The notes: generated by a model not told the origin, from the letters alone. Positions 45,808-64,000 are shown, numbered from the stretch's first letter. The stretch is DNA of 64,000 nucleotides from an uncultured Candidatus Saccharibacteria bacterium (GCA_964573015.1 CAZNHZ010000002.1:66144-130143); one strand, 5' to 3'. Numbers and translations: made by a program.

Positions 45808-45923
45808 GTAAAACAGTATTTGTCGAGCGGGTACTCTGCTCTAGCGTCAGAGTACTGCTTGTGACGGCCGACCGATAAATGATATAATTTTTCTAGACAA
45901 TACTGTACAAACAGGAAAAAATT

Positions 45924-46421: not shown

Positions 46422-46439
46422 TAAAAAGGGGTGGCGTAA

Positions 46440-47246: not shown

Positions 47247-47584
47247 TGCTTAGAAAACTACGTCGTATCAAACCGGCTGCATGGTATGGCGTGGCGGCAG
47301 TATTGGCTATGACGGGGCTGCCGTTAGCCGAGGGGTTAATTAACGGTACGGATAATCTCTTTTCTTATGCGATAATTCAGCTAATAGGTGCTATAGTTGC
47401 CGCTTTGTTTGTTCGGCGATTAGTAAACGGTCAGTCGGACAGGCTGCGTCGCTCTGTAGATAAAAGCTGGATGATCGGCTCGGTATTGGCGGTGTGGTTT
47501 GTGGTGTATTTGTCTCAGGCCTGGCCGTCACATATGTCCACAACGTTGTGGCGCCGAGCTGGCAGACCATATTGTTTAACGTGA
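47246..47584 (+). CDS. Small polytopic membrane protein (three TM), possibly the N-terminus of the following gene
   Basis: 112 aa. Its start overlaps the upstream stop (TGATG). Its last 91 nt overlap the next ORF in another frame. Confidence 0.45.
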   Translation: MLRKLRRIKPAAWYGVAAVLAMTGLPLAEGLINGTDNLFSYAIIQLIGAIVAALFVRRLVNGQSDRLRRSVDKSWMIGSVLAVWFVVYLSQAWPSHMSTTLWRRAGRPYCLT

Positions 47585-48420
47585 TAGTAGTTGGTATGAC
47601 CGCGGCAGCAATTGAGTACGCTAGGCATGGTATCATGCAGCTGGGCGGTCGCCGCAATGCACTCTTTTTCGGTGTGATAGTGAGTGTGGTATTTATGATC
47701 TTGCAAATAAACATTTTGCATATTGCCGAGATGCACACGGCAGATGAGATAATAAAATTTGTCGTTTCCGATATCATGCCGAGCGCGGCAAATAGCTTAC
47801 TGCTTACCTATCTTGCGATAAGCGCCGGCTTGTGGCCGCAGCTAGTGTATCGCTTGGGTATTGTTGCTATGGTATACATACCACCGATTATTCCAAAATA
47901 TGACTGGTACTTGAGCGGTGTGGCGTGGTTGTTGTTGGCAGTGGCTACATACATTGTTGTTGATCGGACCAATCGTGATGATAGACGAACTTCCAGGGAT
48001 GTAAATTATCGCCGTCTGCGACTTAGGTATGTTTATCATATTATGTACTTGGCGGTTCTCACCGGCTTAATGTTTTTTATGGTAGGAGTATTTACCTATA
48101 AGCCGCAAGCTATCATGTCCAACAGTATGCAACCTGTGTTTGGTCGGGGGTCTATCGTAATTGTGCAAAGAGCAGATGGTATGCAAGTACAAACCGGCGA
48201 TATTATCCAATACGTGAGTGCGGGTCGTTCTATCACTCATCGGATCATAAAAATTGACCAGAGTAGCGATGGATCGGGACGCCGAATCATTATAACCAAG
48301 GGCGACAACAGTCCGAGCGCCGACAAGCCGATTACGGTCGAACAGGTTGTCGGCACGGTTCGCGCCCAAATACCGCTTTTGGGTTACCCAACCGTTTGGT
48401 TACGGGAGGTGGTACAATGA
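47494..48420 (+). CDS. SipW-class (ER/archaeal-type S26B) signal peptidase I fused to an N-terminal polytopic membrane domain
   Basis: 308 aa. The C-terminal ~110 aa read IMSNSMQPVFGRGSIVIVQ...GDIIQY...SITHRII...ITKGDNSPSAD. This gives a Ser nucleophile, a His general base and the KGDN box seen in SipW. The N-terminal ~190 aa have about 5 TM helices. Confidence 0.75.
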   Translation: MVCGVFVSGLAVTYVHNVVAPSWQTILFNVIVVGMTAAAIEYARHGIMQLGGRRNALFFGVIVSVVFMILQINILHIAEMHTADEIIKFVVSDIMPSAANSLLLTYLAISAGLWPQLVYRLGIVAMVYIPPIIPKYDWYLSGVAWLLLAVATYIVVDRTNRDDRRTSRDVNYRRLRLRYVYHIMYLAVLTGLMFFMVGVFTYKPQAIMSNSMQPVFGRGSIVIVQRADGMQVQTGDIIQYVSAGRSITHRIIKIDQSSDGSGRRIIITKGDNSPSADKPITVEQVVGTVRAQIPLLGYPTVWLREVVQ

Positions 48421-48441
48421 ATAGAGTAAACGGGTGGAATT

Positions 48442-49578
48442 ATGGCACTTGGTATTGATAACTCTGAGCACGCGCGTCGACCGATAGGGTTTAGTGTTAT
48501 TGGTGTTTTTTTGCTGATGTTTTCGTTTTTTGTAACCTATGATATAACTCAGGGTCAGCCTGAATCCGCGCCAGTTGCAGCTGCCTATGAATATACGGTC
48601 AGTCAATCAATTGATACGAATGTCGATTATTTCAAAAGCAGTTTTTTTGAAAAAGGACCGGGTACAAACACTGCATATGTCGCCGATTTAACTGATATTA
48701 TCGGAGCAACATTTCACTACAATTTTCATGGTTCGGAGTCGATTAAGCTCAGTTATGCTTACGAAGTAACAGCAAGCGTCAGGGGTAATTATGCTTTGCA
48801 AACTGACCCGCAAAAAATTCCCAGCGTGTGGAACAAGAATTATCAGTTGGTAGCGCCAACCCGCGAAGCTATCAGTGGTCATGATATTACGCTAAGTCCT
48901 GAAGTAAAGATACCGTTTGCTGACTATAAAAAACAAATAGATCAGTTTAAAACCGCACTTAGTTTGCCGCTCAATAGCGAGGTAGTGGTTACCTGCACTA
49001 TAGAGGTTAAAGGCACCGTAGGCGATACGTCTTTTCAGGATAAACGAGTCGCGACCATAACGGCTCCGCTTGATCAAGTCGTTTATACCCTAGGCATAAA
49101 GTACGACAAGCAGGATAAAAAGCAGGTGGTGGCTCAGGCGACTAAGGACTCACAACAGCTATATCAACGCTCAAAGATTTTTGTAGCAATTGGACTGGCG
49201 GCAGCCGGGTTGGCGGCGATTGGCTATGGGCTGCGACGGCAAATCTTTAAGTCACCATACCAACGCGAGCTGGAGCGCATTTATCGTTATCATGACGGAA
49301 TTATAATACGAGCTAAGCAACCGGCAGAATTGGCGGGTAAACATACGGTGCCGGTAATGAGTTTTGATGATTTACTAAATCTTGAAGAAGAGCTAAAGAC
49401 GCCGATTGTAGCGGCACCTGCCGGAGGAGAATCGACGCAATTTAGCATTATTCATAACGATGTCATATACATGTATATACTAGGAAAGCCCTTGATTGAG
49501 GAATTGCCCTCTGCCGCTCTTGATACAGATGATGAGGTTGCTAAACTATGGCGTCACCGCAAAAAACCTAAAAAGTAG
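48442..49578 (+). CDS. Two-TM membrane protein with a large extracytoplasmic beta-rich domain (DUF5305-like, from memory)
   Basis: 378 aa. TM1 is IGFSVIGVFLLMFSFFVTY and TM2 is IFVAIGLAAAGLAAIGYGL. The cytoplasmic tail reads ...VPVMSFDDLLNLEEELKTPIV. Confidence 0.55.
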   Translation: MALGIDNSEHARRPIGFSVIGVFLLMFSFFVTYDITQGQPESAPVAAAYEYTVSQSIDTNVDYFKSSFFEKGPGTNTAYVADLTDIIGATFHYNFHGSESIKLSYAYEVTASVRGNYALQTDPQKIPSVWNKNYQLVAPTREAISGHDITLSPEVKIPFADYKKQIDQFKTALSLPLNSEVVVTCTIEVKGTVGDTSFQDKRVATITAPLDQVVYTLGIKYDKQDKKQVVAQATKDSQQLYQRSKIFVAIGLAAAGLAAIGYGLRRQIFKSPYQRELERIYRYHDGIIIRAKQPAELAGKHTVPVMSFDDLLNLEEELKTPIVAAPAGGESTQFSIIHNDVIYMYILGKPLIEELPSAALDTDDEVAKLWRHRKKPKK

Positions 49579-49586
49579 GCTGTTTA

Positions 49587-50132
49587 ATGGCACTGGAAAT
49601 TAATTCACGACGTAGCGCATATCGACATGGCCATAATATGCTGGCTCGTCAGCGTCGTCGCAAACAAATAGTACGAGTGATTGTTTCTATCATGATCTTG
49701 TTGATGCTAATTGTAGTCGCTGCTTTAATTTATATATGGTACACGGGACGCTACCAACCAGCCCCCCCGGCCCCGCCGCCGTCACGGCCAAAAGTTAAAG
49801 TTGATCAACCGAAAGTGGTAGTTGATGAAACGGCTGCTGTCGGCGTATCATCACAGCTTTTTACCAACAAAGTGCCGCAAGGGAAAAATGCTTCACTGAC
49901 AATCAAGACCAACCCGCTTGCGGCATGTTCGATTAGTGTGGAATACAATAAACAAGCGAGTAAAGACTCAGGTCTGGTGCCAAAAAAGGCCGATGAATAT
50001 GGCGTGGTTAGCTGGGCATGGACTGTCGAAGCTTCGCGGCCGATTGGGTCGTGGCCGATTGTCGTCACTTGTGCGAATGCAAAAAAATCGGGGGTTTTAG
50101 AGGTTAATATCGAAGTCGTGCCAGCAGAATAA
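49587..50132 (+). CDS. Membrane-anchored protein with a Pro-rich linker and an Ig-like domain
   Basis: 181 aa. TM helix IVSIMILLMLIVVAALIYIW, then PAPPAPPPSRPK, then a beta-type domain. Confidence 0.5.
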   Translation: MALEINSRRSAYRHGHNMLARQRRRKQIVRVIVSIMILLMLIVVAALIYIWYTGRYQPAPPAPPPSRPKVKVDQPKVVVDETAAVGVSSQLFTNKVPQGKNASLTIKTNPLAACSISVEYNKQASKDSGLVPKKADEYGVVSWAWTVEASRPIGSWPIVVTCANAKKSGVLEVNIEVVPAE

Positions 50133-51017
50133 TCAGTCAAGTGAAGCTATGTATGCCGACCAAGTTTCGTTTTTGATTTGCAAAGGTGACTTTATGAGAA
50201 TCAATAGACGTTTTTTGGTGAGAATAATTGATTGAGGACCCTTGGATGATGTACCTATAAAATAGACAGTTGCGTCATCTGCTACGACGCGCTCTTTGGC
50301 ATTGAACTCAAGCGCCATATTTTTTATTTCCTCATCGGGATCAGTTGAAAAGTTTTGTGGCAGTGGTTGTTGGCTGACGGTAATATTGACTTTATTTATA
50401 GTATCGACGTATGCAAAAACCGGATTACGATCGGGCGGACTGACCCGTTTCCAGCCGCCGAGCTGTTGGATCGACTTTCCGTTGGGAAGTAGCGTGTCAA
50501 ACTCAGGAGTTAAACCGCCAATCGACTGATTCGGTTTAGATGATTGATTAATGAACGGAATTGATACTGGCGAAATTTGTCGGTAGCTGACAAACCAAAT
50601 ACCAACTAAGAATAGCCCTACAATAAGTATGAGTTTGATAGACGGCATATTTATTGTGAACTGTCTTGTGTGGTTAACGGATGGCTTGATCCATGTCGTT
50701 GTCCGACGAAATACCGCGGTTATAAATCGAACAATATGTCGGATTAATCGTGTGACAAGCGGTATGATTTCACTGACTAAGATATGACCAATAGTGCCAA
50801 TTGTATCTTTGACGCGGTCTAGTCGCGGATCGGGATCAGTTGTATCGATAATTGGCTTGGTGGTTCGAGCATTTAAAACTTCGCTTGAGGCCTCCTGATC
50901 TGACTTGGTTGAGGTTGGTAACGCCTGTGAGGCAGACGCTCTATTGGAACGAGGTTTAGGTTTTTCAGCGGAGCGTGCTGGTGGGGGGCTAAGCGAATAA
51001 GTGCGGTATTTCATCAT
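50133..51017 (-). CDS. Membrane-anchored protein, last gene of the minus-strand surface operon (C-terminal domain DUF4367-like, tentative)
   Basis: 294 aa with a central TM helix (LILIVGLFLVGIWFV). Its start overlaps the stop of the 1890-aa gene by 4 nt. Confidence 0.5.
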   Translation of the reverse strand: MMKYRTYSLSPPPARSAEKPKPRSNRASASQALPTSTKSDQEASSEVLNARTTKPIIDTTDPDPRLDRVKDTIGTIGHILVSEIIPLVTRLIRHIVRFITAVFRRTTTWIKPSVNHTRQFTINMPSIKLILIVGLFLVGIWFVSYRQISPVSIPFINQSSKPNQSIGGLTPEFDTLLPNGKSIQQLGGWKRVSPPDRNPVFAYVDTINKVNITVSQQPLPQNFSTDPDEEIKNMALEFNAKERVVADDATVYFIGTSSKGPQSIILTKKRLLILIKSPLQIKNETWSAYIASLD

Positions 51018-54000
51018 TGTGCGTAGGTTGGAGTATCAATTGGTTGTTGGAGTCCACCGGTAAAAGTGCGTCCGTGCATCAGGCGCTTACTCGGATCTGC
51101 GGTAAACTGAAGACTAAGATCGGTTATTGTCGGCCCGCGACTGACATCGTCCGGGTATCCAAAGGCTTGCGAGCTATCGACTGTGACATTGAAGAAGAAG
51201 TACCTGCCACATTTGATATCTGTACCGCCACTGTCTTTGACGATATATGCCCCCGGTGTGCCAAGTGTGACGTCGCCAAAATGAGTCTCCTGTCCCCAGG
51301 TAGTCATGGTTGCGCATTTGGTGGAGGTAAGTTGGTTGGCCATACTGCGGTATTTGAGCTGCCAGCGGGCGCCGATGGAGTTATCGAGGCCGTTTATCAG
51401 CCAGTAATTTGGGAACACATCACTGTCGGTATCTACCATAATGGAGTATTTGGCGACCTGTGGCTGGGAAAGCAGGGTCGTTTGCTGGGCGGTGTTTGCG
51501 CCGCTCGGGTAGGCCAGGGTCGCACCGCAGCCGCCGCCGAGCACGTAGAGTTTGCCGTCGCTGTAGACTGCTGCCGCTCCGTAGCGGTCGCCGGCAAAGC
51601 GCTGGTTGGTCGATGACCATTCACCGACGCCGGTTGGCATATTCCCAGATGCTATAGTCGTGTTGGCGCTGACAGGAGCGAGCAGTGTACTGGGCGCGCA
51701 GGTTGTCGGACTGTTGCGTCCCCCTATGAGGTAGATATAGCCGTTGGCAGCGATAGCATCGGCGTCGGCTAGCTGTTTGGGTAATGATGTGCTGTAGAGC
51801 CAGTTTCCGGCAGTTCCGTTCGTAGTATTTAGTTGTGAATACGATGTGTCACTGAGGTAGTTGCCGCTGCCGTCTATACCGCCAAAAACATACAGGTTAT
51901 TGGCGTAGGCGACGCTGGCGAGGCTGCTGCGGGCGACCGGCAGGCTCGTGCTGGCGGTCGACCAGGCGCTGGTAATATTGCCGCCACTCGTGAGCTGCGG
52001 GCTGACGTAGACTGTAGCAGTTGGAGTGCCCGCAGAGTTATTGCCGCCCACGACGTAGAGCCGTCCATTCCAAATGGCGACGCCAAATTTACTGCGGGCA
52101 CTAGGTAGCCCATTGGTCGCCGTAGACCAACTCCCGATAGTCCCGCCGCTAGGAGTGGCGTGGTATACGCTGTTTTGGGCTGTGCCGCTGGCGTTCTGCC
52201 CGCCAATATAGTACAGGCTGCCACCACTAGTGGCTAGCTTGCCCCAGCCACGTGCTTGAGGGAGGGCGGCTTGATCAGTCCACGTACCCACGCTGCCATT
52301 GGCATCGATTGGAGCTGATGAAACAGTAGTAACCGGGTTAGTGCAGTCGGTGGTACCGGTGCAACCGCCCGCCATAAACAGGTGTCCGTTTAATACGGTA
52401 GCACTACCGCCGAGACGTTGTTGGTTTGTCACATACTGATTTGCTGCGTTACTGTAACCGGCCGGGGTGCCGCTGTCGTTGTTGTAGACCTGGAATGTTT
52501 GTATGACATCGGTGCGTGTCGTACAGCCGCCCGGACTAGCGCCGATGGTGCATCCACCGATGACATAGGCGTAGGAATTACTGACAGGAACAGTAAGTCC
52601 CCAGCGCTGGTTGATCTCGACGGCAGACACATGCCAGCCTTCGACAAGGCTGCCGTCACTGACATTTATCTTGATAAACTCGATATCAGCGAGTACGCCG
52701 CTACTGGCTTCGTACCCGCCGACTGCATAGAGGTAACCGTTGTAGCCAAACGCCGCCGAACGCCGCCGTCCGACCGACATTTGGAAAGCTGATTCTATCC
52801 AGTTACTACCGCTGACGGCGACAATGTTATTATTGTTGTCGATCTTTGCATAACGGACAGTTTTGAGATCAACACTATTTGGTGTGACGCCGCCGATGAG
52901 ATAGATATAATTGGCATAGACCGTACCGCTCATGATGCCGAGGCCTTGTGAGCCGCCGACTGCTAGTTCGGCATCGATTTGTTGTTGCCCGCTGGTGCTG
53001 CAGCCTGTTATTGCGCCAGATGTCTGGATATTACATTTGTAGACGGCGGTGCTGTAGGACGTACAGCCGGCATTGCTGCTAGCAGTACAGCCGCCAAGTA
53101 TGTAGAGGTTTCCTGGGTTGTTGCTGGCGTCATCGGGGTTGGCACGGGCAAAGGCGTATTGGTATGACACGTTGTTGACGCCAAGTCCCGTCAAGGATTG
53201 ATTTGTCCAGGTACCGAGACTGCCGTTTGTTTGATTGATATCGGCCCGCAACAGATCATTGGCATTTCCGCCGCCCGTCAAACCGCCGACGAGGTAGACC
53301 CGGCCGTTGAATACAACCGGACTAGAAGCAGCCAGCCCACTCGGCGTGGTATTGGTCGTGTCAACGCACCATATGCCACCCTGGATAGTTCGGGGAGCGG
53401 GACAAGCAGCAGGGGCGGTCATCTTGCCGGTCGATGATATCGCTACGTAGGCGGTGTTACTGGATGTGGCATTACAGCTATTGCTCGTGCAGCCGCCGAT
53501 GAGGTACAAGTAGCCGTTGGATATAAACGAGTTGGTCAGCATGTTGCCGACATTACTCGGCATGTTGCAATTAGTTGCGCTCCCGCCGCTGCAAGGCGCG
53601 GTGCCAAACGGAACACTTTCACCCACGGTCGAGGCATCGCCGTCTTGGTTGATTTTGCCATATTGGATATCCGAGAGGGCGTTGTTGCAGTTGCCGGTCG
53701 CAGTGTTTTGGCTGCTGCAGCCACCAATCTCGTAGAGGTAGCCGCGCCAGGCAACGAGGCTCTGTCCGGTGCGGGTGTCATTGACGCCGCCGACGAGGTT
53801 CCAGCTGTCGATACTGCCATCGGCGTTGATACTTGATACCTGGGTGTCGCTGACCACAGACGTACAAAAACCGCTGGCGTTGGTGGCGGTGCAGCCGCCG
53901 CTAACATAGATATAGGCACCCCATACCGAGCCGAAGTCGCCGCCGCTAGTCATGCGTCCAGATTGCATAGGGGTAGTCGCGACCCAGTTGTTGAGGCTGC

Positions 54001-56686
54001 CATTGGCATTGATTTTATTGTAATAGACGGAGTTACTCGGTGCGCCGCCGATGGAAGTTGCACCGCCAATCAGGTACAGCCGGTCGTTATAGACTTGGGC
54101 GGCGTAACCGTACGTTGCGTTCGGCAGGTTACCTGATGAGGCCCAGGAGCCGATCGTGCCGTCAGGGATGAGGTCGGCGATGTGGACAGTGTTAGCGACC
54201 GACTTGGTGCCGCCGCTGCTGGTAATGCCGCCCATGAGGTAGAGGCGGTTATTGTAGGCTAATACTTTGATAGCGCTGCGCGGCGATGGCAGGTCAGAGG
54301 CGCGGTACCAGTACGCCCAGTTAGCTTTGTTGCCGTCAGTCGGATGCCACAGTTGCGGCTCGCCATTTGCCCCTAGTTTCGCAACGTATGTAGTTTTGCA
54401 AATCCCGCCGTCACCGGTGCCATTGGCAGCAGTGCAGCTCGCGTCTTCGCCGCCCAGTGCGTAGAGAAAGCCGTTGTAGGCAACGAGCGAAAAACTACTA
54501 CGCGGAGAGGGCAGGCTATAGGATGTAGATGTACACCAGCCACTACAGATGCCACTGCCAGGATTGGCGCTCGCGATCGTACCATTTGTGGTATCGAATT
54601 TCGCCCAACTGACGGTACTTATCGCGCCAGTTGAAGAGACGTATGAGATAATGACAAGCCCTGACGTGCCTGCCGATCCTGTATTGTCGGCTGGACCTGC
54701 GTCGCCACCAGCGCCAGCGCTACCACGATCGGGATCTCCGCTGTTGCCAGGTGTCGCCAAAACGGCAGCCATTGTATTGCCCGACCCGCTATAATAACTT
54801 GAACCACCGCCACCACCTGCAGCACCGGTGCGAAAGCTGGAGCCTGCACCACCACCACCACCATAATACCCGCCACCACCACCGCCACCACCGGCATAGC
54901 CAGTAGTTGCGTCGCGCGAGCCGCCATTTCCACCATTGCCGAATGTGCCGCCATTGTTGCCGCTGCCATCTGTACCTTGAGCGCTGCGGCCGTCGCCACC
55001 AGCGCCACCTTGTAACGAACTTCCGCTTGAGCCGGAGTTGCCACCACTAGTAATAACACCACCGCTACCGCCGCTGGAACTGGTGCCTCCTGCACCACCG
55101 CCTGACGTTCCAGATGCGCCTCCGGTTTGTCCCGTCACACCACCGCCACCGCCACCTGCGCCTCCGGGGTTCCCCGAGTTGCGACCACCACCGCCGCCAC
55201 CCGCACCCCCAGCAGCGATAATAAGATGACTAGTAACGCGACGCACACTTGAGTAGCCACCGCCGCCGCCCCCGCCTCCAGAGTTGGTGGCGTTGCCCGT
55301 GCCGGCTCCGCCAGCGCTACCTACGGTAATATATAAGCGTTCGCCTGGCGTAACAGTAAGGTTGCTTTCAGTATAGCCACCCGCGCCACCTGCGCCACCG
55401 GCATTGTTCGCACCACCACCACCGCCACCACCACCCGCACCCCACATCTTCACGCTGATCGAAGATATATCTGCTGGAACGTCAAAGTAGTCACTATTGG
55501 TCGCAGTGGTAAATGATTGCTGGCCACCACTAGGGTGGGTGCCGCCGACCGCGTAGAGGTAGCCGCCAGTCGCGGCGACGCCTTGTTTCCAGATAGACGT
55601 ATTGAGACTTAGTGTCGGGTTCCAGCTATCGAACCGTGCGCCGGTCGTGGCGGATTTTTTGATGAGCTTGTTGGCGACGTCGAAATCGATATTGGTTTCG
55701 TTGTTGCCATTCATAAACTGCTGCGCGGTGACGATATATATGCTTGGGTCGATCGAAAGCGGGTAATTTGCATCTGTAAGCCCACTGGCTTTGACGGTAA
55801 GAAGGTTGCCTTTGAGTCTGAACTCGGCTTTGACTTTTGATGCTGTTTTGTTGGATTCAACGACAGTAGGTTTAGGAATAACAAATAACAACAAGGATTT
55901 TTCGGCATTCAACTGGGCTTTTTGCAGTAGTTCCTGGTCTGACTCAGTGGCGGCAGAAACATTGTTTATAAACAGTTGATTGCCATAAACTCCAATACTG
56001 CCATCACGCTCAAGTCTTGCCTCGGTACCATTTGGTAGCTTTAGGTCATAGCTAACTTCATATTTGTCACCTTGTTCCTGCGACAAAACAATGTCTTCTT
56101 TTATTCCTTCACCGGTTGCAGTATATACAAGCCAACCTTTGTGATTACGAAAAGGATAAACTAATCGGTTCTCCTGTTGCTGGCCCTCGGCTAGAGTAAG
56201 GTGCGGTTTCATAACCAGGTCGATTTTATAAGTAGGGTCAGTGACGGTGATGCCTCTGCTGGCGTCAGAAGGAAGTATTGCCGATACAAGACTGGCTCCT
56301 GTCTGCTTGTTATCAGAACTATTTGCCATACCGTGAATAAAAGTATATTCACGTTTCTTTTCATCATAGGTAATACTCTTTGCGAGGACAGGGCTTGAAA
56401 CAGTTAGAATCTTTTCTGCTTGGCTAATGCGATATTCGTGAGGACCAAAGTATCGATAAATTTGATATCCGGCAATTGCAAGAAGTGTGGTGATAACAAA
56501 AATTATCGCAAGTTTTATGACCTGTTTTTTTTCAGGTACGGGAATAGTAAGATAGCGTTTTCCGTTTGCGGTCGATTTTATCCAGCGGTGGTTCACAGAT
56601 AAGAAATATCGTGAGTGAACTCGGTTAATGATAGAGTCTAGCCACCGATGGAAAGCCGTTCGGTTTTTTTTGTTCATACGTCCCAA
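51014..56686 (-). CDS. Giant membrane-anchored surface protein with a Gly-rich (ALK/LTK GlyR-like) domain and ~18 Kelch-like blades
   Basis: 1890 aa. TM helix at aa ~56-76. A Gly-rich block spans aa ~395-685. A recurrent blade signature appears ~18 times (examples: LYAVGG, LYLIGG, LYVVGG, IYLIGG). Confidence 0.8.
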   Translation of the reverse strand: MGRMNKKNRTAFHRWLDSIINRVHSRYFLSVNHRWIKSTANGKRYLTIPVPEKKQVIKLAIIFVITTLLAIAGYQIYRYFGPHEYRISQAEKILTVSSPVLAKSITYDEKKREYTFIHGMANSSDNKQTGASLVSAILPSDASRGITVTDPTYKIDLVMKPHLTLAEGQQQENRLVYPFRNHKGWLVYTATGEGIKEDIVLSQEQGDKYEVSYDLKLPNGTEARLERDGSIGVYGNQLFINNVSAATESDQELLQKAQLNAEKSLLLFVIPKPTVVESNKTASKVKAEFRLKGNLLTVKASGLTDANYPLSIDPSIYIVTAQQFMNGNNETNIDFDVANKLIKKSATTGARFDSWNPTLSLNTSIWKQGVAATGGYLYAVGGTHPSGGQQSFTTATNSDYFDVPADISSISVKMWGAGGGGGGGGANNAGGAGGAGGYTESNLTVTPGERLYITVGSAGGAGTGNATNSGGGGGGGGYSSVRRVTSHLIIAAGGAGGGGGGRNSGNPGGAGGGGGGVTGQTGGASGTSGGGAGGTSSSGGSGGVITSGGNSGSSGSSLQGGAGGDGRSAQGTDGSGNNGGTFGNGGNGGSRDATTGYAGGGGGGGGYYGGGGGAGSSFRTGAAGGGGGSSYYSGSGNTMAAVLATPGNSGDPDRGSAGAGGDAGPADNTGSAGTSGLVIISYVSSTGAISTVSWAKFDTTNGTIASANPGSGICSGWCTSTSYSLPSPRSSFSLVAYNGFLYALGGEDASCTAANGTGDGGICKTTYVAKLGANGEPQLWHPTDGNKANWAYWYRASDLPSPRSAIKVLAYNNRLYLMGGITSSGGTKSVANTVHIADLIPDGTIGSWASSGNLPNATYGYAAQVYNDRLYLIGGATSIGGAPSNSVYYNKINANGSLNNWVATTPMQSGRMTSGGDFGSVWGAYIYVSGGCTATNASGFCTSVVSDTQVSSINADGSIDSWNLVGGVNDTRTGQSLVAWRGYLYEIGGCSSQNTATGNCNNALSDIQYGKINQDGDASTVGESVPFGTAPCSGGSATNCNMPSNVGNMLTNSFISNGYLYLIGGCTSNSCNATSSNTAYVAISSTGKMTAPAACPAPRTIQGGIWCVDTTNTTPSGLAASSPVVFNGRVYLVGGLTGGGNANDLLRADINQTNGSLGTWTNQSLTGLGVNNVSYQYAFARANPDDASNNPGNLYILGGCTASSNAGCTSYSTAVYKCNIQTSGAITGCSTSGQQQIDAELAVGGSQGLGIMSGTVYANYIYLIGGVTPNSVDLKTVRYAKIDNNNNIVAVSGSNWIESAFQMSVGRRRSAAFGYNGYLYAVGGYEASSGVLADIEFIKINVSDGSLVEGWHVSAVEINQRWGLTVPVSNSYAYVIGGCTIGASPGGCTTRTDVIQTFQVYNNDSGTPAGYSNAANQYVTNQQRLGGSATVLNGHLFMAGGCTGTTDCTNPVTTVSSAPIDANGSVGTWTDQAALPQARGWGKLATSGGSLYYIGGQNASGTAQNSVYHATPSGGTIGSWSTATNGLPSARSKFGVAIWNGRLYVVGGNNSAGTPTATVYVSPQLTSGGNITSAWSTASTSLPVARSSLASVAYANNLYVFGGIDGSGNYLSDTSYSQLNTTNGTAGNWLYSTSLPKQLADADAIAANGYIYLIGGRNSPTTCAPSTLLAPVSANTTIASGNMPTGVGEWSSTNQRFAGDRYGAAAVYSDGKLYVLGGGCGATLAYPSGANTAQQTTLLSQPQVAKYSIMVDTDSDVFPNYWLINGLDNSIGARWQLKYRSMANQLTSTKCATMTTWGQETHFGDVTLGTPGAYIVKDSGGTDIKCGRYFFFNVTVDSSQAFGYPDDVSRGPTITDLSLQFTADPSKRLMHGRTFTGGLQQPIDTPTYAQ
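54632..55504 (-). repeat. Low-complexity GGN-rich coding tract (Gly-rich domain of the giant protein)
   Basis: The + strand shows runs such as ccaccaccaccaccgccaccacc. The protein reads WGAGGGGGGGGANNAGGAGGAGGY...GGGGGGGGYSS...AAGGAGGGGGG... Confidence 0.85.
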
Positions 56687-56734
56687 ATTATGATTGTGAT
56701 CTTCCCATTGATTATAGCATAAACAACATCTTCT

Positions 56735-59700
56735 TTATCTGTTGCTAAATGCAAAGTTGAGGTTTCCAACGTAAGCGTTAGCATTGCGGCTAACAGCTAG
56801 GTCGATTTTGAACACAATACTATCGCCCCCTACAAAACCACAGGTGGATGGGTCTGCCGCTCCGCTTGCAGAAGCTATCTGCCAGGTCGTTTGTGTGCCT
56901 GTCGAAACAGAAGTTGCACCACCACATGGCGTGGTACCGGTCGCAGGAGAATTTCTAAGAATAGTGTATTGAACAGATGAATATGCACCAGAAACGCTAC
57001 CGTTGTCCGTACGACCCATAAGTGAGGTTTGGCCTGAGTTGAAGCCTTTGAATGTGCCAGGTAGCTGATAAGTAACATAAATACTATAGGTTTGAGCGGT
57101 TGACTGTGGGCTGGTCCATTTATAGAAGTTGTAGGTTTCATCGGTGCCGCAAATGGTTGGTTGCCCGCTGGAGCCGTCGTTGATATTGAGATAATCAGAA
57201 CAAAGATCGCTTGTCATTGTGCCGATACCGGTGCCGTGCAAGACGGCGTTGGTGTACTCTGGGCTAATGGTGATGATATTATCTGGGCTGGAACCGCAGG
57301 CTCCCCAGCCATCAGCTTCGTAGCACTGTAACTTGCCGAGTGTCGTATCGTAATACATGCTACCGAGCAATGCATCGTTGTCACTGGCGATCGGTGCGCT
57401 GGCGCCGCGATCGAGGGTGAAAAGCGTAGTCGGGCCACCGTTGACACCGCCGCCAATTTGAACGTTTGGTGTGGTAACAGTGGACAGGGTCATGCTGACG
57501 GTGTCGACATAGAACGTACGCCCGGTGGCATCGGTTTGCGTAAAGTAGAGGTATGGATTGGTCGGCGCGGTCGAGCTGGTGGTGACATAACAGGTCACTT
57601 TGGTGTAGTTGGTCGAGCTGACGCCAATCGTTTGCGTGTTGTAATCGACGCACGGGGTAAAACTACTGCCACCATCAGGGGAGTAGCGAATCGTGTATGA
57701 GGTGAAGCTGCCAGAAGTGATATTGACGTATGAAGTGATGCGATAAGTTGTTGAAATGAGCGGATTGACGGCGAGTTTGTTGCGGACACCTTGATTGGCG
57801 CCCGTCGTGACGACCTGTGCGCTATCGCTGGCGTCATTGCCTGAGGTCGTACTGCGGGTGACGGTTGAGCCGCCGACCCCCGACCAGTTGGTTGCAAAGT
57901 TGGCAGCATCATTGACGCCGGGATCAGCCGAATAGTTGAGGTCGGCTGCGATGGTGACAGAGAGATTATCGACGTAGAAAGTTCGGGCAGTGCCGCTGCC
58001 GGTCTGGCGGATGAGGATTGCGTTGCTGGCAGTGATGCCGCTGATGGGGGCGCTGAAGGTACAGTTGATCTTAGTCCAGACGCTCGTGTTGACGGCTTTG
58101 GCATTTGCACACAGCAGCGTCGCAGCGCTGCCATCTGCCGAATAATAAACCTCGAGGTCGCTAAAGGTGGCGCTACCGGTGGTCAGGCGAGCTGAGAATG
58201 AGACGTTGTAATTCATCTTGGCAGTGAGGGCTGAAGTCAGCTGGTTTTTGACACCGCTACTGGCTGTGGTGCTTGTGCCAACCGACACAGAACCTTGACC
58301 GGTTGCGATGTAGTTACCAGCGGTTGTGTAGCGACTAACCGTTGCCCCGTTTATTGCCGACCAGGTGTTGTTTGGGAACGTCGTTGTGCCGCCACTGCCT
58401 ATGGTTTCGGCACCAGCATTGGAGGCGTACTCAGCGAGATTGCTATTGACTGACAGGAGTCCGGCGGCTGACTGGGTTTGAACACTGAGGAGTGTACCGT
58501 TGACTGGGTTGACTGAACTATCGCGAATCGTCAGACCATTGGTCGCGCTCGTCTTGCTGACGACAAGCTCAGCACCACCAGCACTCTGAAGAGTATTGTC
58601 GTAGGCTGCTTGCAGGGTGGTCGAGCTTGAAGCGCCGGCTGCTGTCCAGTCATTACCGTTCCAGATCATCGTGGCAGTAGTATTTTTGCGCATGGCGATT
58701 TGATTGCCCTGGCCGCCGCCGTTGACGCTGAGCGTAAAGTCTTTGCTGAGATTTGAAGCCGTCACGTAAACGACTCGGCCGGCTGTTATTATGGTCGGAT
58801 CTGGCATAAAAGCAGTCTGTCCGTCATGAGTAAATCCTACAATGACGGAAGCATTGTTATTTATCGATGATTGAGAAATTGTACAGTTTGTAATACTGAC
58901 TGATTCGGTGCCGCCTGCGAAACAGCCGGTGTCGTTTGACGCGGTCTGATAGGCTGCTGTTGCGAGTGTTACAAGTCCATTTGCGGTTGTACCTGAGCCA
59001 CCTGAAATCAGCACGTTGCCGCCGATTGCACCACTTGCGCCGCTATTGCCACCCTGAAGCGTCAATGTTCCGCCGTTACCAGTGCCGTTACCGGTAGCGC
59101 CCTGGACAGTAAAGGGATTGCCTTGAGTGTTAGCGGCTGTCTGTGCACTTGCTTGGAGAGTGGTTGGGGCACCTGCGATACCAAGAGTTACCGAGCTAGA
59201 TGAAAGGATTAACGGTGTGGTACCTGTTGACTTACCAATCACAATGTTTGTCGCGTTACTAGCGCCAATCGTCAGACTTCCGCTAGCCGCATCAACCGTG
59301 CTGGCTTGAAGCGAACCAGCCGTACCAGTGCCAGAGATATTGAAATTTGCACCGACTTGCGGTGCTGTGCCGTTTTGGATGAAATCACCAGCGGTTTTGC
59401 CGCCCAATTGCATGGCATTGAGTGCGTACGGCACGGCAGAGAGCCGCTTCATCGGAACCATTTCACCGTCACCGGCACAACTACTAAATGGCGTACAAGA
59501 GGTATTGGTATTGCCGATATTCATACTCAGCCAGAGAGTATCTTGGTTCCAATCGATACTGGTGCCAAATGGTGTAACCGACCCAAGCTCGACTGACATG
59601 AAACCGTTTTTTACAGTCACACCCTGTGAGCTGGCGTTGAGATGATCCTCAGTCCATCTGAGCGTACCGCCGGGATTGCCGGCTGATGTGCCGGTACCGT

Positions 59701-59920
59701 CCTGGTAAATTTTGAATTGAACATTGTAATAGCCGTCAGGCACGGTTGCTCCGGCGGCAGTAAAGAGACGGCCCTGAAAATTAATCGTTTGGTTGATTCC
59801 AGGAGCAGCTGAAACAGACGGCATAACCAGCAGTACCCCACTCAGTAAACTACCAATGAGGACAGCAAACAAAGCGACGATGGTCGCACGCTGACGTTGT
59901 GGTGACACGCCTAAGAACAT
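56735..59920 (-). CDS. Large secreted fibre-like protein with a tail-fibre-like N-terminal region and two CBM4/9-like modules
   Basis: 1061 aa with an N-terminal signal/anchor. NQTINFQGRLFTAAGATVPDGYYNVQFKIYQ...RLSAVPYALNA. Two modules end TFYVDNLSVT and TFYVDTVSMT. Confidence 0.7.
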   Translation of the reverse strand: MFLGVSPQRQRATIVALFAVLIGSLLSGVLLVMPSVSAAPGINQTINFQGRLFTAAGATVPDGYYNVQFKIYQDGTGTSAGNPGGTLRWTEDHLNASSQGVTVKNGFMSVELGSVTPFGTSIDWNQDTLWLSMNIGNTNTSCTPFSSCAGDGEMVPMKRLSAVPYALNAMQLGGKTAGDFIQNGTAPQVGANFNISGTGTAGSLQASTVDAASGSLTIGASNATNIVIGKSTGTTPLILSSSSVTLGIAGAPTTLQASAQTAANTQGNPFTVQGATGNGTGNGGTLTLQGGNSGASGAIGGNVLISGGSGTTANGLVTLATAAYQTASNDTGCFAGGTESVSITNCTISQSSINNNASVIVGFTHDGQTAFMPDPTIITAGRVVYVTASNLSKDFTLSVNGGGQGNQIAMRKNTTATMIWNGNDWTAAGASSSTTLQAAYDNTLQSAGGAELVVSKTSATNGLTIRDSSVNPVNGTLLSVQTQSAAGLLSVNSNLAEYASNAGAETIGSGGTTTFPNNTWSAINGATVSRYTTAGNYIATGQGSVSVGTSTTASSGVKNQLTSALTAKMNYNVSFSARLTTGSATFSDLEVYYSADGSAATLLCANAKAVNTSVWTKINCTFSAPISGITASNAILIRQTGSGTARTFYVDNLSVTIAADLNYSADPGVNDAANFATNWSGVGGSTVTRSTTSGNDASDSAQVVTTGANQGVRNKLAVNPLISTTYRITSYVNITSGSFTSYTIRYSPDGGSSFTPCVDYNTQTIGVSSTNYTKVTCYVTTSSTAPTNPYLYFTQTDATGRTFYVDTVSMTLSTVTTPNVQIGGGVNGGPTTLFTLDRGASAPIASDNDALLGSMYYDTTLGKLQCYEADGWGACGSSPDNIITISPEYTNAVLHGTGIGTMTSDLCSDYLNINDGSSGQPTICGTDETYNFYKWTSPQSTAQTYSIYVTYQLPGTFKGFNSGQTSLMGRTDNGSVSGAYSSVQYTILRNSPATGTTPCGGATSVSTGTQTTWQIASASGAADPSTCGFVGGDSIVFKIDLAVSRNANAYVGNLNFAFSNR

Positions 59921-60086
59921 GGTGGAATAGAGCCCCTGTTTTGTTTTTATGTTTTTTACTACTTATGCACATAGCAAAGTAGACATAAGGTGCGTGTGGT
60001 GGGTTTTGTTAGATATAACGTTTTTTGTGTTTGTCTCTCGTTGTATCTATAGAGATAGTAACGCTTTTGCTTAAAAATTGCAAGGC

Positions 60087-61067
60087 TTAATTGGTGACAA
60101 GTTGACCGCGAACTTTGAGGATGTGGCGTTCGCGCCGCTCGCCGAGCCAAAAGCTGGCGACAGCAGTTACAATTGCAACATATAACGGCCACAGCACAAT
60201 CAACATATTTTTTTGCTCGACAGCTGTTTGAGCGGCTACAATATCGGGCTGACCGTTGACGATTGCGGCTACTGTCAAAAAAGCTACTCGCCCATCGGCG
60301 TCGCTGGCCTGGATACCAATCTGGTAAATACCGGGTTTTTTGTAGGTATGAGTCACGGTAAAGCCAAAGTTGTCGCCGCGTGGAATCACTTTGTTGGTCG
60401 AGTCCCCCCACTGGACATTGACTGCATAAGGCGGCCGTCCGCCAATCAAATCGATATGCATGGCCATTTCTTTTTCCGGGAAGACACCGCGGATAACGGC
60501 ATCGGTGTTGATGAGGAGCTGTGTACCGCCAAAGTCAAACGAAGCGACCGGTCCGGCTTGGGTTGGCAGTGCATCGTAATAGACGGTGACAATATTTGAG
60601 TCGGGCCCAGGTTGGTTGAGGGCGTCGTAGACACGAGCAACGAGTGAATTCTGCCCAATCAGCAGATCAATCTCCAGAGTGTAGGTGCCGCTGCTGCTGC
60701 AAGCGGTAGATCCGGCAAAGATATCGTTTTTGAATATTTCAACCAGAGTGCTGGCCGGACAGGTACCGCTGATAGTAATAGGTGTTGCACTAAAATGCTG
60801 ACCATTAGACGGCGTTTGTATAGTGGCGGCTGTGGTTGGCGGTTTGGTCGGTACCGTCCCGCTGAGGCCGATTGATCCGTATTCCGGCCCGTTATAGGGC
60901 GCGGCGGCATTGACGGTAAACACCATCAGTAAGCCGCCGAGCATAGCCAGCAATACCCCGAGCGCTGTATAGTTGGTATGTTCGTGAGGTTTTAGTTTTC
61001 CGGTGTGGCTATGGTGAAGTAGACTGCCGTAGACACGCATGGCATTAGTATAGCATGCGGGGCGCAA
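60087..61067 (-). CDS. Bitopic membrane protein with Ig-like and PKD-like domains
   Basis: 326 aa. The N-terminus is His-rich (LLHHSHTGKLKPHEHTNY), followed by a TM helix. The PKD-like block is VQWGDSTN...FTVTHTYKKPGIYQIGIQASDADG. There is a C-terminal TM helix. Confidence 0.65.
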   Translation of the reverse strand: MRPACYTNAMRVYGSLLHHSHTGKLKPHEHTNYTALGVLLAMLGGLLMVFTVNAAAPYNGPEYGSIGLSGTVPTKPPTTAATIQTPSNGQHFSATPITISGTCPASTLVEIFKNDIFAGSTACSSSGTYTLEIDLLIGQNSLVARVYDALNQPGPDSNIVTVYYDALPTQAGPVASFDFGGTQLLINTDAVIRGVFPEKEMAMHIDLIGGRPPYAVNVQWGDSTNKVIPRGDNFGFTVTHTYKKPGIYQIGIQASDADGRVAFLTVAAIVNGQPDIVAAQTAVEQKNMLIVLWPLYVAIVTAVASFWLGERRERHILKVRGQLVTN

Positions 61068-61076
61068 TAACCAACA

Positions 61077-62066
61077 CTAGCGACGACGGCGTCGACCGCG
61101 GGTTTGGCCGATGATGTGCTCGTTGTAGCGACGAATTCCTATACGCAGGACTATAAAGAGTAAGAGCAAACCACCGATTACCATAGCGATTAATTTATAA
61201 GGAATAACCCAAAAGCTCAGGGATGAAGCTGTTTGCTGGTTGTTGCCATAGGTCATGATAAGATCGGCAGTATAGCGTCCGAATAAAATTTTATTGCCAA
61301 TGACGGTTTGGTCTAGGCTGGTGACAAACTTGCGGATACTGCCAGGCAATACATTACGATTCTCAAGATTTACATTTAAGTTGGCAACGTTTTGGCCAAA
61401 CATATCTTTGATGGCGATTTGACCGCGCGGCTGCTCGTGGATGTTGCCGCTATTTTTGATACGGACATAAAATTGTATTGGTGTCGATTCAAATAAACTG
61501 CCCTTTGTGTTGTTAACCGCCGTAAAGAATTCCTCGATATTCATAGCTTCTTTGGCGTCACCATTGACTCGCAGCAGCACGAGGGCTCCAAGACTGGCCG
61601 AGAGCGATACGCCAGATTGGCTTAGCCCGGGTGCTTCGGCAGTAAAGCGAATAACACCGTAATAACCGCCAGGCGCAGCATTATGCGGTATGGAAATATT
61701 GACGTTTAGTTGTTGGACTTCTTTAGGGTTGAGAGTTATCTGCGGCAATGGCGATATCCAGCTTTTTATGGAGTACGGACTGACTTCGCCCTCTTCGAGT
61801 AAGATTTTTGGCGTGCCATCCTCTTCGTTATTTGCCGTAAAGTCGTTTATTTCGTTTTTGACGAGTAGTTTTACAGGGCTAATATCGCGCAGGCTTATTT
61901 GAGCTTTAACAGTTTCGCCGGGGTTGCCGCGGACATTAAGTACCGGCGGAGCGATCTCAAGTGCTTGTCCGCTGGGTTGACCGGTAGGTGTTTGGGCAGA
62001 GGCTAACGACCAGGCGAGCATGGCAAGGATGAGACTGCCGCTGGCGATAGAGATGAATCTTTTCAT
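61077..62066 (-). CDS. Membrane-anchored two-domain beta-sandwich protein (WxL-interacting protein-like: DUF916 + DUF3324-like)
   Basis: 329 aa with a signal peptide. LEIAPPVLNVRGNPGETVKAQISL... and WISPLPQITLNPKEVQQLNVNISIPHNAAPGGYYGVIRF. The second domain has IQFYVRIKNSGNIHEQPRGQIAIKD. There is a C-terminal TM helix and an RRRRR tail. Confidence 0.6.
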   Translation of the reverse strand: MKRFISIASGSLILAMLAWSLASAQTPTGQPSGQALEIAPPVLNVRGNPGETVKAQISLRDISPVKLLVKNEINDFTANNEEDGTPKILLEEGEVSPYSIKSWISPLPQITLNPKEVQQLNVNISIPHNAAPGGYYGVIRFTAEAPGLSQSGVSLSASLGALVLLRVNGDAKEAMNIEEFFTAVNNTKGSLFESTPIQFYVRIKNSGNIHEQPRGQIAIKDMFGQNVANLNVNLENRNVLPGSIRKFVTSLDQTVIGNKILFGRYTADLIMTYGNNQQTASSLSFWVIPYKLIAMVIGGLLLLFIVLRIGIRRYNEHIIGQTRGRRRRR

Positions 62067-62069
62067 GGT

Positions 62070-63203
62070 TTAAAACAGTGCAGTACAAATGTACGTTAGA
62101 GTGGTGGTGTATGTACCCGGTGGCTGGATACCAGATACGTTGACGATGTAGGATGCAGTGTAAACTTGAGAATTAGTCGGACCAGGTGTGGCACCAACGG
62201 TGCCAAGCGTCGCCGGAGCAACCGCAGCGCTGTTGGCGACGACATCACCGGTCGTAAACTTGAATTGGTCTTGGGTCTCATAGCCGGTATAGGCCTGAGC
62301 TTTCAGTGTGTTACCGTTGGATGACGGCGAGACTTCGGCACCGAAAGCTGGTGTAGACACGGTTGTGGTATTGGTTCGCAGATTCATACCCCATTGGCTG
62401 GTGCCGCGGGCCGGTGCGGCTTTGGTACTCATACCGGGTATGGTGTTTGCGCCGCTGGTTAGCGTCGGGCCGTTAACCGTAATTGAATAACCGCTGAGCG
62501 CGTTGGTACTGGCAGCCATTTGCGAGGTAGCGACGGCGGTATCGGTCGGTGAAAATGTGCGGTCAAAACTAATCACGCCCGACGTTGATGAATTGCAGTT
62601 AAGTTGCACCGTAGCACCGGTACAAAAGATGAGTGACTCCGGCATCACGCCTGAGAGGACAATTTGTTCGGCGGTGCTGGCAGCGACAACGCCGCTATCG
62701 ACTAGTCCGGTCGAACCGTCGGTGCCGGTGTAGGTGCTTATCCGAACATAGAATGACGTGTTGTTAGCAGTTGGGTTGGTAACACTTTGGATTGGCATTG
62801 TGATTGCCGTACCGCCCGACACACTGGCGGCAGTACGAGTAAAATAAGGTGCGCCGTTGGTGGTATTGTTGAGCGTAAAACCGGTCGCGCCTACTTGTGT
62901 ACCTGATGTAGAACTGGTAGTGACTAATCCGGTCGGTGTCGTACAAGTGCCGGCGGCATTAGTACAGTAAAGAAACTTAATTGAACCGATTGAAGCAGTT
63001 GTTGGAACGGTAAAAGTAAAAACGTGATTGACGACACCACCAGCCTTTGAGCCGCCGTCACCACCGGCGCCGGCTTGGAGCGTGAGAGTCCGGGATGTTA
63101 TCTGAGCAGCGTTTGCGGTCTGGGCCTGCCAAAAAGGACTCGAAATAATTGTCAATGTCAAAACACTGAGCATCACCCACCGGAACTCTCTCCTCATTCC
63201 CAT
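62070..63203 (-). CDS. Secreted Thr/Ser/Gly-rich beta protein, WxL/SCPU-like subunit candidate
   Basis: 377 aa with signal peptide VMLSVLTLTIISSPFWQAQTANA. The C-terminus reads ...QVYTASYIVNVSGIQPPGTYTTTLTYICTALF. Confidence 0.65.
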   Translation of the reverse strand: MGMRREFRWVMLSVLTLTIISSPFWQAQTANAAQITSRTLTLQAGAGGDGGSKAGGVVNHVFTFTVPTTASIGSIKFLYCTNAAGTCTTPTGLVTTSSTSGTQVGATGFTLNNTTNGAPYFTRTAASVSGGTAITMPIQSVTNPTANNTSFYVRISTYTGTDGSTGLVDSGVVAASTAEQIVLSGVMPESLIFCTGATVQLNCNSSTSGVISFDRTFSPTDTAVATSQMAASTNALSGYSITVNGPTLTSGANTIPGMSTKAAPARGTSQWGMNLRTNTTTVSTPAFGAEVSPSSNGNTLKAQAYTGYETQDQFKFTTGDVVANSAAVAPATLGTVGATPGPTNSQVYTASYIVNVSGIQPPGTYTTTLTYICTALF

Positions 63204-63210
63204 AAGAGAA

Positions 63211-63240
63211 ATTGTAGCATGAGCGTTTCAGGGGCGTCAA
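63211..63240 (-). promoter_or_regulatory. Sigma-70-type promoter immediately upstream of the 377-aa gene (leaderless configuration)
   Basis: On the minus strand: TTGACG (63240-63235), an 18-nt spacer, TACAAT (63216-63211), then 7 nt (ttctctt), then the ATG at 63203. Confidence 0.5.
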
Positions 63241-63434
63241 CAAATAAACCTCGCAGCGGTTATCTGTTTGGGTGATTCGCCTTTGTGCAGTACTAGATGT
63301 GGTGGAGAGTGTGGTAGTAAAACGCTAGGCGACTCCTTGGCGATCGGCCGAGCTTAGTGTAAAACAAAACTCCTGCGGCGTTTGCGGGGCAAATCGGGTC
63401 AGGAGTAATGCAGTATGTAAACGACTCATATGAC

Positions 63435-64000
63435 TTAGAATGTAGCCGTACAGATATAAGTTAGGGTTGACGTGTAGGTACCGGCTGGTTGGCTACCGGG
63501 GACGTTGGCGATGTAAGATACGGTATAGATTTGGGCGTCGGTCGGCTCGGGATTGCCGGTGGCGTCGTAATTACTATCAGCTACGATATCACCGGTGACG
63601 AATTTGAATGTGTCAGCTAACGCATAGTCAGCAGTCGCCCGGCCGTTGAGATTGCTGCCGTTGCTGGCTAGATCGATTGTGGCGCTGATGGCTGGGGCAG
63701 TGCCTGGAAAGCCGGGAGCTGCCGCTGCGGAATTAGTCGTCAGATTGAGCCCAAACTGCGCGACACCTTTGGTGCTGGCCGATGGTGTCGTAATACCGGG
63801 TATGGTATTAAAACCGCTCGTCAGTGTCGGTCCGTTGACCGTTATGGCGTAGCCTGAGCCGGCATTGGTGGTCGCCGCCATTTTGCTGATGGCCATGGCT
63901 GTGTCGGTTGAGCTAAATAGCCGGTCAAACCAGATGAGACCGCTGGTAGCTGTTGAGCAATCTGGCACACCGGATGTTTTTGATATGTTTGCTCCCGTAC
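63435..64000 (-). CDS. Paralogue of the 377-aa WxL/SCPU-like subunit, 5' end beyond the window
   Basis: The frame stays open upstream of the track start to the window edge (...TGANISKTSGVPDCSTATSG...). The C-terminus QIYTVSYIANVPGSQPAGTYTSTLTYICTATF parallels the neighbour. Confidence 0.65.
   Translation of the reverse strand, partial: TGANISKTSGVPDCSTATSGLIWFDRLFSSTDTAMAISKMAATTNAGSGYAITVNGPTLTSGFNTIPGITTPSASTKGVAQFGLNLTTNSAAAAPGFPGTAPAISATIDLASNGSNLNGRATADYALADTFKFVTGDIVADSNYDATGNPEPTDAQIYTVSYIANVPGSQPAGTYTSTLTYICTATF

Follow-up and report, generated by a model that had tools for sequence, protein, structure and literature searches.

The last 13.9 kb (positions 50,133 to 64,000) of a 64,000-nucleotide (nt) stretch from an uncultured Candidatus Saccharibacteria bacterium (GCA_964573015.1 CAZNHZ010000002.1:66144-130143; the entire stretch is called the window here) very probably hold the larger, distal part of a Saccharimonadales pam pilus cluster, together with three conserved genes for membrane-anchored surface proteins. 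The Pam pilus is a pilus system of the candidate phyla radiation (CPR) described in 2026 (bioRxiv 10.64898/2026.03.03.709456), and three of the proteins encoded here are recognized by the curated pam models of NCBIfam release 20. CPR_Pam_pilin_C (NF058581; cut-off, 55 bits) scores 132.8 bits in the 3′ part of a 401-amino-acid (aa) pilin, 124.7 bits on that pilin when complete, and 132.0 bits in a 377-aa pilin; PamR is matched by the equivalog-level model CPR_pilus_PamR (NF058578) at 347.7 bits, against a cut-off of 300. Pfam alone leaves both pilins and PamR unnamed. An earlier note on this DNA had proposed a surface fibre of a monoderm epibiont, with large binding modules and an expected strand-complemented assembly; the general idea was right, the NCBIfam matches and the preprint giving the fibre its name.

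A scan for open reading frames (ORFs) finds seven, all on the minus strand, occupying 50133-64000 with the gene coordinates and common orientation given before. From the upstream end, the features are:

63435..>64000, minus strand: Pam pilin gene, 3′ part (C-terminal 187 codons of 401 aa), cut by the window end (NCBIfam CPR_Pam_pilin_C)
63350..63434, minus strand: terminator-like hairpin, then UUUUGUUUU (RNA fold; putative function)
63211..63240, minus strand: promoter-like site (consensus scan, pattern match only)
62070..63203, minus strand: 377-aa Pam pilin; signal peptide, N-terminal beta-sandwich ~38-176, linker ~177-196, C-terminal Pam pilin domain 209-377
61077..62066, minus strand: 329-aa membrane-anchored protein of two immunoglobulin-like (Ig) domains, a PamC/PamD-type chaperone and remote member of WxLIP (DUF916) (AlphaFold2, Foldseek, profiles)
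60087..61040 (61067 with a TTG start), minus strand: PamR, RbmA-like; N-terminal signal or transmembrane segment and C-terminal transmembrane helix (NF058578)
56735..59920, minus strand: 1061-aa fibre-like surface protein (Pfam CBM_4_9, internal repeat, synteny)
51014..56686, minus strand: 1890-aa giant with an N-terminal transmembrane anchor (Pfam Kelch and Gly_rich_2, transmembrane segment, synteny)
50133..51017, minus strand: 294-aa bitopic protein (ORF, transmembrane segment 119-149, positional homologues)

The spacings that had been noted (3, 9, 166 and 48 nt, and an overlap of 4 nt at 51014-51017) are correct for the start codons used; a 231-nt spacer (63204-63434) separating the two pilin genes was missing from that list. 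The stops of two convergent genes do abut at 50132/50133, where a plus-strand gene ends (50132) and the 294-aa gene has its stop (50133). The seven genes had been counted rightly, but the set is incomplete, since the first pilin is a cut gene of 401 aa and the PamT gene lies upstream, outside the window. Homologues of each gene number hundreds to thousands and the order is kept in 26 species, so we take the genes to be real.

Pilins, tip protein and PamR

In the published system, two pilins of two domains each, PamA and PamB, were identified by cryo-electron microscopy (cryo-EM) of Ca. Mycosynbacter amalyticus filaments; they polymerize when the inter-domain linker strand enters the open C-terminal Ig-like domain of the next subunit; the linker and the groove of the C-terminal domain are the most conserved pilin parts. 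The pam operon also encodes a third pilin (PamE), a single-domain tip protein (PamT), two PapD/FimC-like chaperones that retain a C-terminal transmembrane helix (PamC and PamD), and the RbmA-like PamR, proposed to be both terminator and anchor. ATP synthase genes adjoin pam loci; a 'tail fibre-like protein' holds a central place in the pam neighbourhood network across CPR lineages (all from bioRxiv 10.64898/2026.03.03.709456). The Saccharibacteria cluster shares with that of M. amalyticus the pilins with a Pam C-terminal domain and an extra N-terminal beta-sandwich, the PamT tip, an anchored two-Ig chaperone, PamR, ATP synthase genes alongside, a large fibre-like protein nearby, and a host lineage within Saccharimonadia. 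It differs in having one chaperone where M. amalyticus has two, and two pilins of 377-401 aa that are 49% identical, in place of a 55-kDa PamA, a 39-kDa PamB and PamE. The locus is a reduced-layout example of an already described pam system with curated hidden Markov models (HMMs), not a new system.

The window end could be crossed on a contig from Logan (L001) that carries the 377-aa pilin gene and is 100% identical to the window across the 601 nt compared. Past the window end it has, in order, the rest of the 401-aa pilin gene (full length at L001 2490-3695), a 242-aa PamT (L001 1660-2388; NF058579, 274.7 bits versus a cut-off of 240), a divergently oriented gene for a 334-aa transmembrane protein, atpD and atpC; the operon therefore begins ~2.3 kb beyond the window. 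The ATP synthase genes adjoining the cluster on L001 match the pam neighbourhoods of the preprint. The 334-aa protein (L001 564-1568, ~2.4-3.4 kb past the window end) is Gly-rich (14% Gly) with one transmembrane segment at 43-75, and in every locus with enough upstream sequence its gene sits, in opposite orientation, between atpC and PamT. Its sole family signal is a weak bactofilin match (17.7 bits); NCBIfam gives it no name, and the PamA-E, PamT and PamR models do not match it.

The two Thr/Ser-rich subunits had been called tandem paralogues, and they are (49% identity, E 5e-111); PamT is ~30% identical to their C-terminal domains. An AlphaFold2 model of the 377-aa pilin from a 50-sequence alignment (pLDDT 77) has a confident N-terminal sandwich (38-176), a linker that is the lowest-confidence part of the monomer (pLDDT 36 at 181-190), and a patchy C-terminal domain (~192-377). 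Across 50 orthologues the linker IVLSGVMPESLIFCT (181-195) has an entropy of 0.40 bits, lower than anywhere else in the N-terminal domain or linker; the one stretch below it is 221-235 of the C-terminal domain (0.29 bits), and 221-255 and the C-terminal TLTYICTA are also strongly conserved. A strand that becomes ordered only in the polymer would be expected to look like this, strongly conserved yet disordered in the monomer model, and the conservation of the linker matches the pattern reported in the preprint. The earlier note had pointed to the C-terminal strand as the exchanged one. Its motif, TLTYICT(A/P)TF, is real and conserved across species, but the donated strand in the solved Pam filaments is the inter-domain linker.

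A reading of the subunits as WxL or spore-coat-U (SCPU) proteins fails every test made, and they belong to the Pam pilin family instead. Neither WxL (PF13731) nor SCPU (PF05229) was found in 50 full pilins (E<=1) or in 62 C-terminal domains (E<=10), and PDB searches by profile and by fold gave neither; no WxL chain appeared among the sequence-profile matches or the top 50 Foldseek matches of the pilin. Those top 50 likewise included no Pap/Fim pilin; the whole pilin model found only generic two-Ig adhesins (BspA, ClfA, PrgB, SpaP, CfaE) at ~1e-5 with TM-scores of ~0.2, a result that carries no information, as the monomer model renders the C-terminal domain badly. Queried singly against the PDB, the sequences of the 377-aa pilin, the fibre protein and the 329-aa protein gave nothing useful.

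PamR is 317 aa long when started at the ATG at 61040, as called on L001, or 326 aa if the TTG at 61067 is used, and has a transmembrane segment at 277-300. This is the gene that had been described as a PKD/Ig protein; the PKD match (PF00801) is partial (46-73 of 80) and, at 23.1 bits, under the cut-off of 23.5.

A second, larger type of pam operon (contig L028; Logan SRR27098862, 1-14570) has two chaperones and three to four pilins, including one of 504 aa. Its genes run PamT, 504-aa pilin, 339-aa pilin, chaperone, PamR, 380-aa pilin and a second chaperone, P0340, which appears to match the accession order PamT/A/E/D/R/B/C of the preprint. The window pilins are closest to the L028 pilin, and the window chaperone to the L028 chaperone, whose places in the gene and accession order would be those of PamE and PamC; the 329-aa protein is 33% identical to one L028 chaperone. 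Where L028 has its second pilin-chaperone pair, this lineage has the fibre and the Kelch giant. Beyond the L028 core are genes for a 300-aa protein, an 1148-aa LRR_5 transmembrane protein and a major facilitator superfamily transporter, the transporter gene lying three genes past P0340. In both operon types the pam core is thus followed by a large surface protein with repeats, though not by the same one.

The anchored chaperone and its remote WxLIP kinship

The 329-aa protein was described beforehand as having a signal peptide, two beta-sandwich halves, a transmembrane helix at the C-terminus, and a poly-Arg tail (RGRRRRR), all of which is borne out by the sequence and by an AlphaFold2 model (pLDDT 84.6) with a signal helix, beta-sandwiches at 36-167 and 175-287, and a transmembrane helix at 290-327. 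As modelled, this is the architecture described for the Pam chaperones, PapD/FimC-like with a C-terminal transmembrane helix. Its top Foldseek matches in the PDB are WxLIP of Enterococcus faecium (9i25_C, 'WxLIP bound to long WxL', 3.3e-10; 9i1y_A, 3.9e-10), ranking above RbmA and then CfaA, CsuC, DraB, SafB, Caf1M and FimC at 4e-8 to 9e-7. The TM-scores are modest (0.35-0.46), as would be expected of hinged two-domain proteins with an extra helix.

Sequence profiles lead to the same family. Pfam WxLIP_PGBD (PF06030) gives the 329-aa protein 17.7 bits, under its cut-off of 27.3, and a sub-threshold match is also found in 42 of 50 close orthologues. An exhaustive profile search assembled a family of 8468 clusters (50% identity, E<=1e-3), and WxLIP_PGBD matches 90 of 101 diverse members, with a best E of 4e-11. 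Three of the ten members scored individually pass the cut-off with nearly the whole profile covered (P0340, 36.2 bits; P0330, 32.1; P0266, 27.7). P0340 resides in the complete two-chaperone pam operon of L028, which places the Pam chaperones within the WxLIP_PGBD family or close to it. When the 101-member profile (A4) was run against 177,635 PDB sequences, EfmWxLIP1 came first (E 0.012), matched over its entire first domain, with the second domain colinear and non-significant; a narrower chaperone profile (A2) did not reach WxLIP among PDB sequences. The likeness to DUF916 plus DUF3324 that had been suggested thus stands in its first half, as remote homology to WxLIP_PGBD (Foldseek, PDB profile and 90 of the 101 family members), but no DUF3324/WxLIP_HBD was detected in the second domain. 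The 329-aa protein is a remote WxLIP homologue and not a member by the Pfam threshold.

The preprint does not mention WxL, DUF916 or Firmicutes; it treats the Pam system as exclusive to CPR, with Gram-negative Pap/Fim pili as the sole comparison (bioRxiv 10.64898/2026.03.03.709456). Our literature search found no paper tying DUF916 to CPR. The WxLIP of Firmicute clusters has the same architecture as the 329-aa protein, and its hairpin strand is predicted to insert into the WxL domain; such clusters combine a single WxLIP with two WxL proteins, a domain-only one and a large one that carries binding domains at its N-terminus (PMC10599100). Compared with these WxL/Csc clusters (PMC10599100; PDB 9i1y, 9i25), the 329-aa protein shares size, signal peptide, two Ig-like domains, transmembrane helix and basic tail, as well as a strand of the anchored protein predicted to enter the partner domain. 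The logic of a domain-only partner plus partners with N-terminal domains is also shared, here by PamT and the two-domain pilins. The partners here, however, have no detectable WxL domain, and there is no WxLIP_HBD signal and no LPXTG protein; WxL proteins are described as wall-bound and non-filamentous, whereas Pam partners polymerize in the solved relative. With chaperone-usher pili (Pap/Fim, CFA/I, Caf1, Saf, Csu) the common ground is the two-Ig chaperone fold, incomplete Ig-like pilin domains and a donor-strand exchange that is predicted here; the differences are that the system here has no usher, no outer membrane, a membrane-anchored chaperone and no sequence similarity to them, and that the donor strand is an N-terminal extension in chaperone-usher pili but an internal linker of two-domain pilins in Pam.

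Conserved gene order and downstream surface proteins

A PamR scan of GTDB species representatives gave 26 loci, which were mapped by tblastn and ORFs. The order is atpA-G-D-C, the 334-aa gene (opposite strand), PamT, pilin, pilin, 329-aa protein, PamR, fibre (862-1637 aa), giant (1725-2081 aa), the 294-aa homologue and a convergent 181-aa gene. Conservation of gene order in relatives was thus confirmed, PamT through the fibre being kept in 25 of the 26 species. Homologues of the 294-aa protein occupy the same position in L004, L010, L011, L019, L022, L025 and L027. All named homologues are from Saccharibacteria or Saccharimonadales, and those of the 26 loci with taxon names are from these or from Patescibacteria. 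The Southlakia transposon sequencing data (Cell 2023, PMC10633639) could not be mapped onto these genes.

The fibre protein (1061 aa) has an N-terminal signal or anchor hydrophobic segment, a Gly/Ser/Thr-rich region, and a Cys-rich C-terminal domain with 14 cysteines. The two CBM4/9-like modules attributed to it are there, at ~510-660 and ~680-830; the first gets 33.5-39 bits from Pfam CBM_4_9, and the two share 30% identity (E 3e-15). We detected 974 relatives of 998-1790 aa, named at NCBI 'carbohydrate binding domain-containing', 'NosD domain-containing' or, in one record, 'S-layer family protein'; PHROGs has no tail-fibre family for this protein. Many orthologues (among P0394-P0426) reach 1300-1790 aa through inserted parallel beta-helix modules (Beta_helix PF13229 / NosD PF05048), and tblastn finds the ends conserved and the middle variable. 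The fibre protein is modular and changes fast, as expected of a host-range determinant.

The giant (1890 aa) is the transmembrane-anchored Kelch/Gly-rich protein that the earlier note took it for. A short basic cytoplasmic head and a single transmembrane segment (53-77) precede a conserved domain at ~80-400 without family match, Gly_rich_2 at ~402-627 (24.7 bits in a scan of that piece by itself; cut-off, 24.3), several Kelch propellers at ~690-1720 (PF24681, 1e-36; Kelch_1, 3e-31) and a conserved C-terminal domain. This giant is not mentioned in the preprint (bioRxiv 10.64898/2026.03.03.709456). G+C reaches 0.56 within its gene (52001-56000), versus ~0.40-0.47 over most of the window, which would be explained by the Gly/Ala-rich coding content. 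The gene called a small anchored protein encodes the 294-aa bitopic protein (transmembrane segment 119-149), whose start overlaps the stop of the giant by 4 nt and whose extracellular C-terminal half is conserved; it has no Pfam or NCBIfam family match. The giants have many cysteines and N-terminal transmembrane anchors.

Across the abutting stops lies a convergent plus-strand operon of six genes (45301-50132), encoding a pair of secreted Thr/Ser/Ala-rich paralogues (165-168 aa, 49% identity), a 268-aa protein with CBM_2 (30.9 bits), a 308-aa archaeal-type/SipW-like signal peptidase I with extra N-terminal transmembrane segments (TIGR02228, 84.9 bits versus a cut-off of 51.85), a DUF5305 protein (84.7 bits) and a 181-aa bitopic protein. 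The convergent position of the 181-aa gene is kept in other species. Of the label 'SipW/TasA-like' given to this operon, the SipW-like peptidase holds, but no TasA-family match was seen. Further off are a gene for a pyruvate phosphate dikinase / phosphoenolpyruvate-utilizing enzyme (42491-44878, plus strand; PPDK_N, 396 bits) and a tRNA gene (33550-33621, plus strand), which is the only Rfam hit in the window; both are housekeeping context.

Assembly, alternative readings and significance

The following steps are carried over from the solved M. amalyticus system to the components found here. Sec would export all products. The 329-aa protein, held by its C-terminal helix, would cap the open groove in the C-terminal domain of new pilins with a beta-strand of its own. 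PamT, a single domain without a donor strand, would initiate the fibre at its tip, and the 401-aa and 377-aa pilins would join by donor-strand exchange, the incoming linker (~177-196 of the 377-aa pilin) filling the groove of the previous subunit. PamR would terminate growth and tether the fibre to the membrane.

Several observations weigh against a pam pilus cluster read in this way. No NCBIfam model matches the 329-aa protein, the window pilins are just 25-31% identical to those of L028, and downstream in L028 is the LRR_5 protein, not the fibre or Kelch giant. No filament has been seen in this lineage, and the preprint itself relies in part on AlphaFold for donor-strand exchange and for the assembly order. 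Synteny alone is weak evidence of shared function, because saccharibacterial gene order is generally conserved and the ATP synthase genes are always adjacent too. A single 13.9-kb operon, as had been claimed, is unproven. Directly 3′ of the first pilin gene is a hairpin (-22 kcal/mol; z -3.4 versus shuffles) followed by the U-tract UUUUGUUUU, and the strongest promoter-like match in the region (TTGACG, 18 nt, TG-TACAAT; 10 of 12 consensus matches plus the extended -10 TG, by pattern match only) lies 8 nt upstream of the start codon of the 377-aa pilin gene. These predicted signals between the pilin genes argue against one transcript; plausibly, the genes form more than one transcription unit, or attenuation raises the output of one pilin.

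It is quite possible that the fibre, the giant and the 294-aa protein are unrelated to the pilus, as independent adhesins or S-layer-like envelope proteins that stand beside the pam core in a rigid gene order. They have transmembrane anchors of their own, and docking of the giants through a pilin-type domain was dropped as an idea when the HMM of the pilin C-terminal domain found no match in the fibre, giant, 294-aa or 334-aa proteins. Among the 20 loci with sufficient downstream sequence, 16 carry the giant; it is missing from L005, L008, L009 and L018, the last lacking the fibre as well with its pam core intact; L028 has another large neighbour, one fibre homologue bears the S-layer name, and the ATP synthase genes are equally tightly linked without an obvious functional tie. 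Against such independence, the genes lie close together on one strand (166 nt, 48 nt, then an overlap of 4 nt), PamR is followed by the fibre in every species but L018, and the preprint independently places a tail-fibre-like protein at the centre of pam neighbourhoods. The link of the giants to the pilus is thus solely one of position, strand and conservation. Most likely these three are glycan- or envelope-binding adhesins of the same attachment apparatus, held by their own N-terminal transmembrane segments and not built into the pilus.

That the core itself builds a WxL/Csc-type surface complex, in which the 329-aa protein is a permanent WxLIP anchor holding non-filamentous subunits on the wall, is unlikely. 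The idea draws on E. faecium WxLIP as the best structural and PDB-profile match, on relatives that pass the WxLIP_PGBD cut-off, and on a cluster make-up parallel to that of WxL clusters (PMC10599100), in that it has an anchored two-Ig protein, PamT as the domain-only subunit, and further subunits bearing an extra N-terminal domain. Yet no subunit has a WxL domain, neither the WxLIP_HBD nor the LPXTG partner was detected, the M. amalyticus members of the subunit family were solved as helical filaments by cryo-EM, and polymerization accounts for the conserved linker. Less probable again is an archaic chaperone-usher pilus (Csu/SCPU-type) taken over by a monoderm; it has on its side donor-strand complementation as the assembly principle and CsuC-CsuA/B (5d6h_A, 1.7e-7) among the fold matches of the 329-aa protein, but no subunit matches SCPU, neither the window region nor L001 has an usher-like gene, the organism lacks an outer membrane, and WxLIP outranks every chaperone-usher chaperone in the fold match.

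More speculatively, and less likely than not in our view, CPR Pam pili and Firmicute WxL/Csc clusters might be two branches of one ancient usher-less machinery for a single membrane, in which an anchored two-Ig protein (WxLIP = PamC/D) completes the incomplete beta-domain of its partners by strand insertion. If so, WxLIP would be a chaperone or anchor of the pilus type, WxL proteins might form strand-exchanged assemblies, and the fibre and giant beside the pam core would be counterparts of the 'large WxL proteins' that bear host-binding modules.

The published account has neither the WxLIP kinship of the Pam chaperone nor the lineage-wide linkage to a Kelch/Gly-rich giant. Pam pili are thought to establish first contact of ultrasmall CPR parasites with their bacterial hosts. 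The locus is a leaner, widespread Saccharimonadales version of the system, with one chaperone and two closely related pilins (49% identical), and the fibre that almost always follows it, with the giant of ~1900 aa that usually does, are candidates for determinants of host specificity. Homology of its chaperone to WxLIP gives Pam relatives in ordinary Gram-positives (enterococci, listeriae and lactobacilli) and suggests an evolutionary origin for it; it also lets Pam pili and WxL clusters, the latter poorly understood, inform each other.

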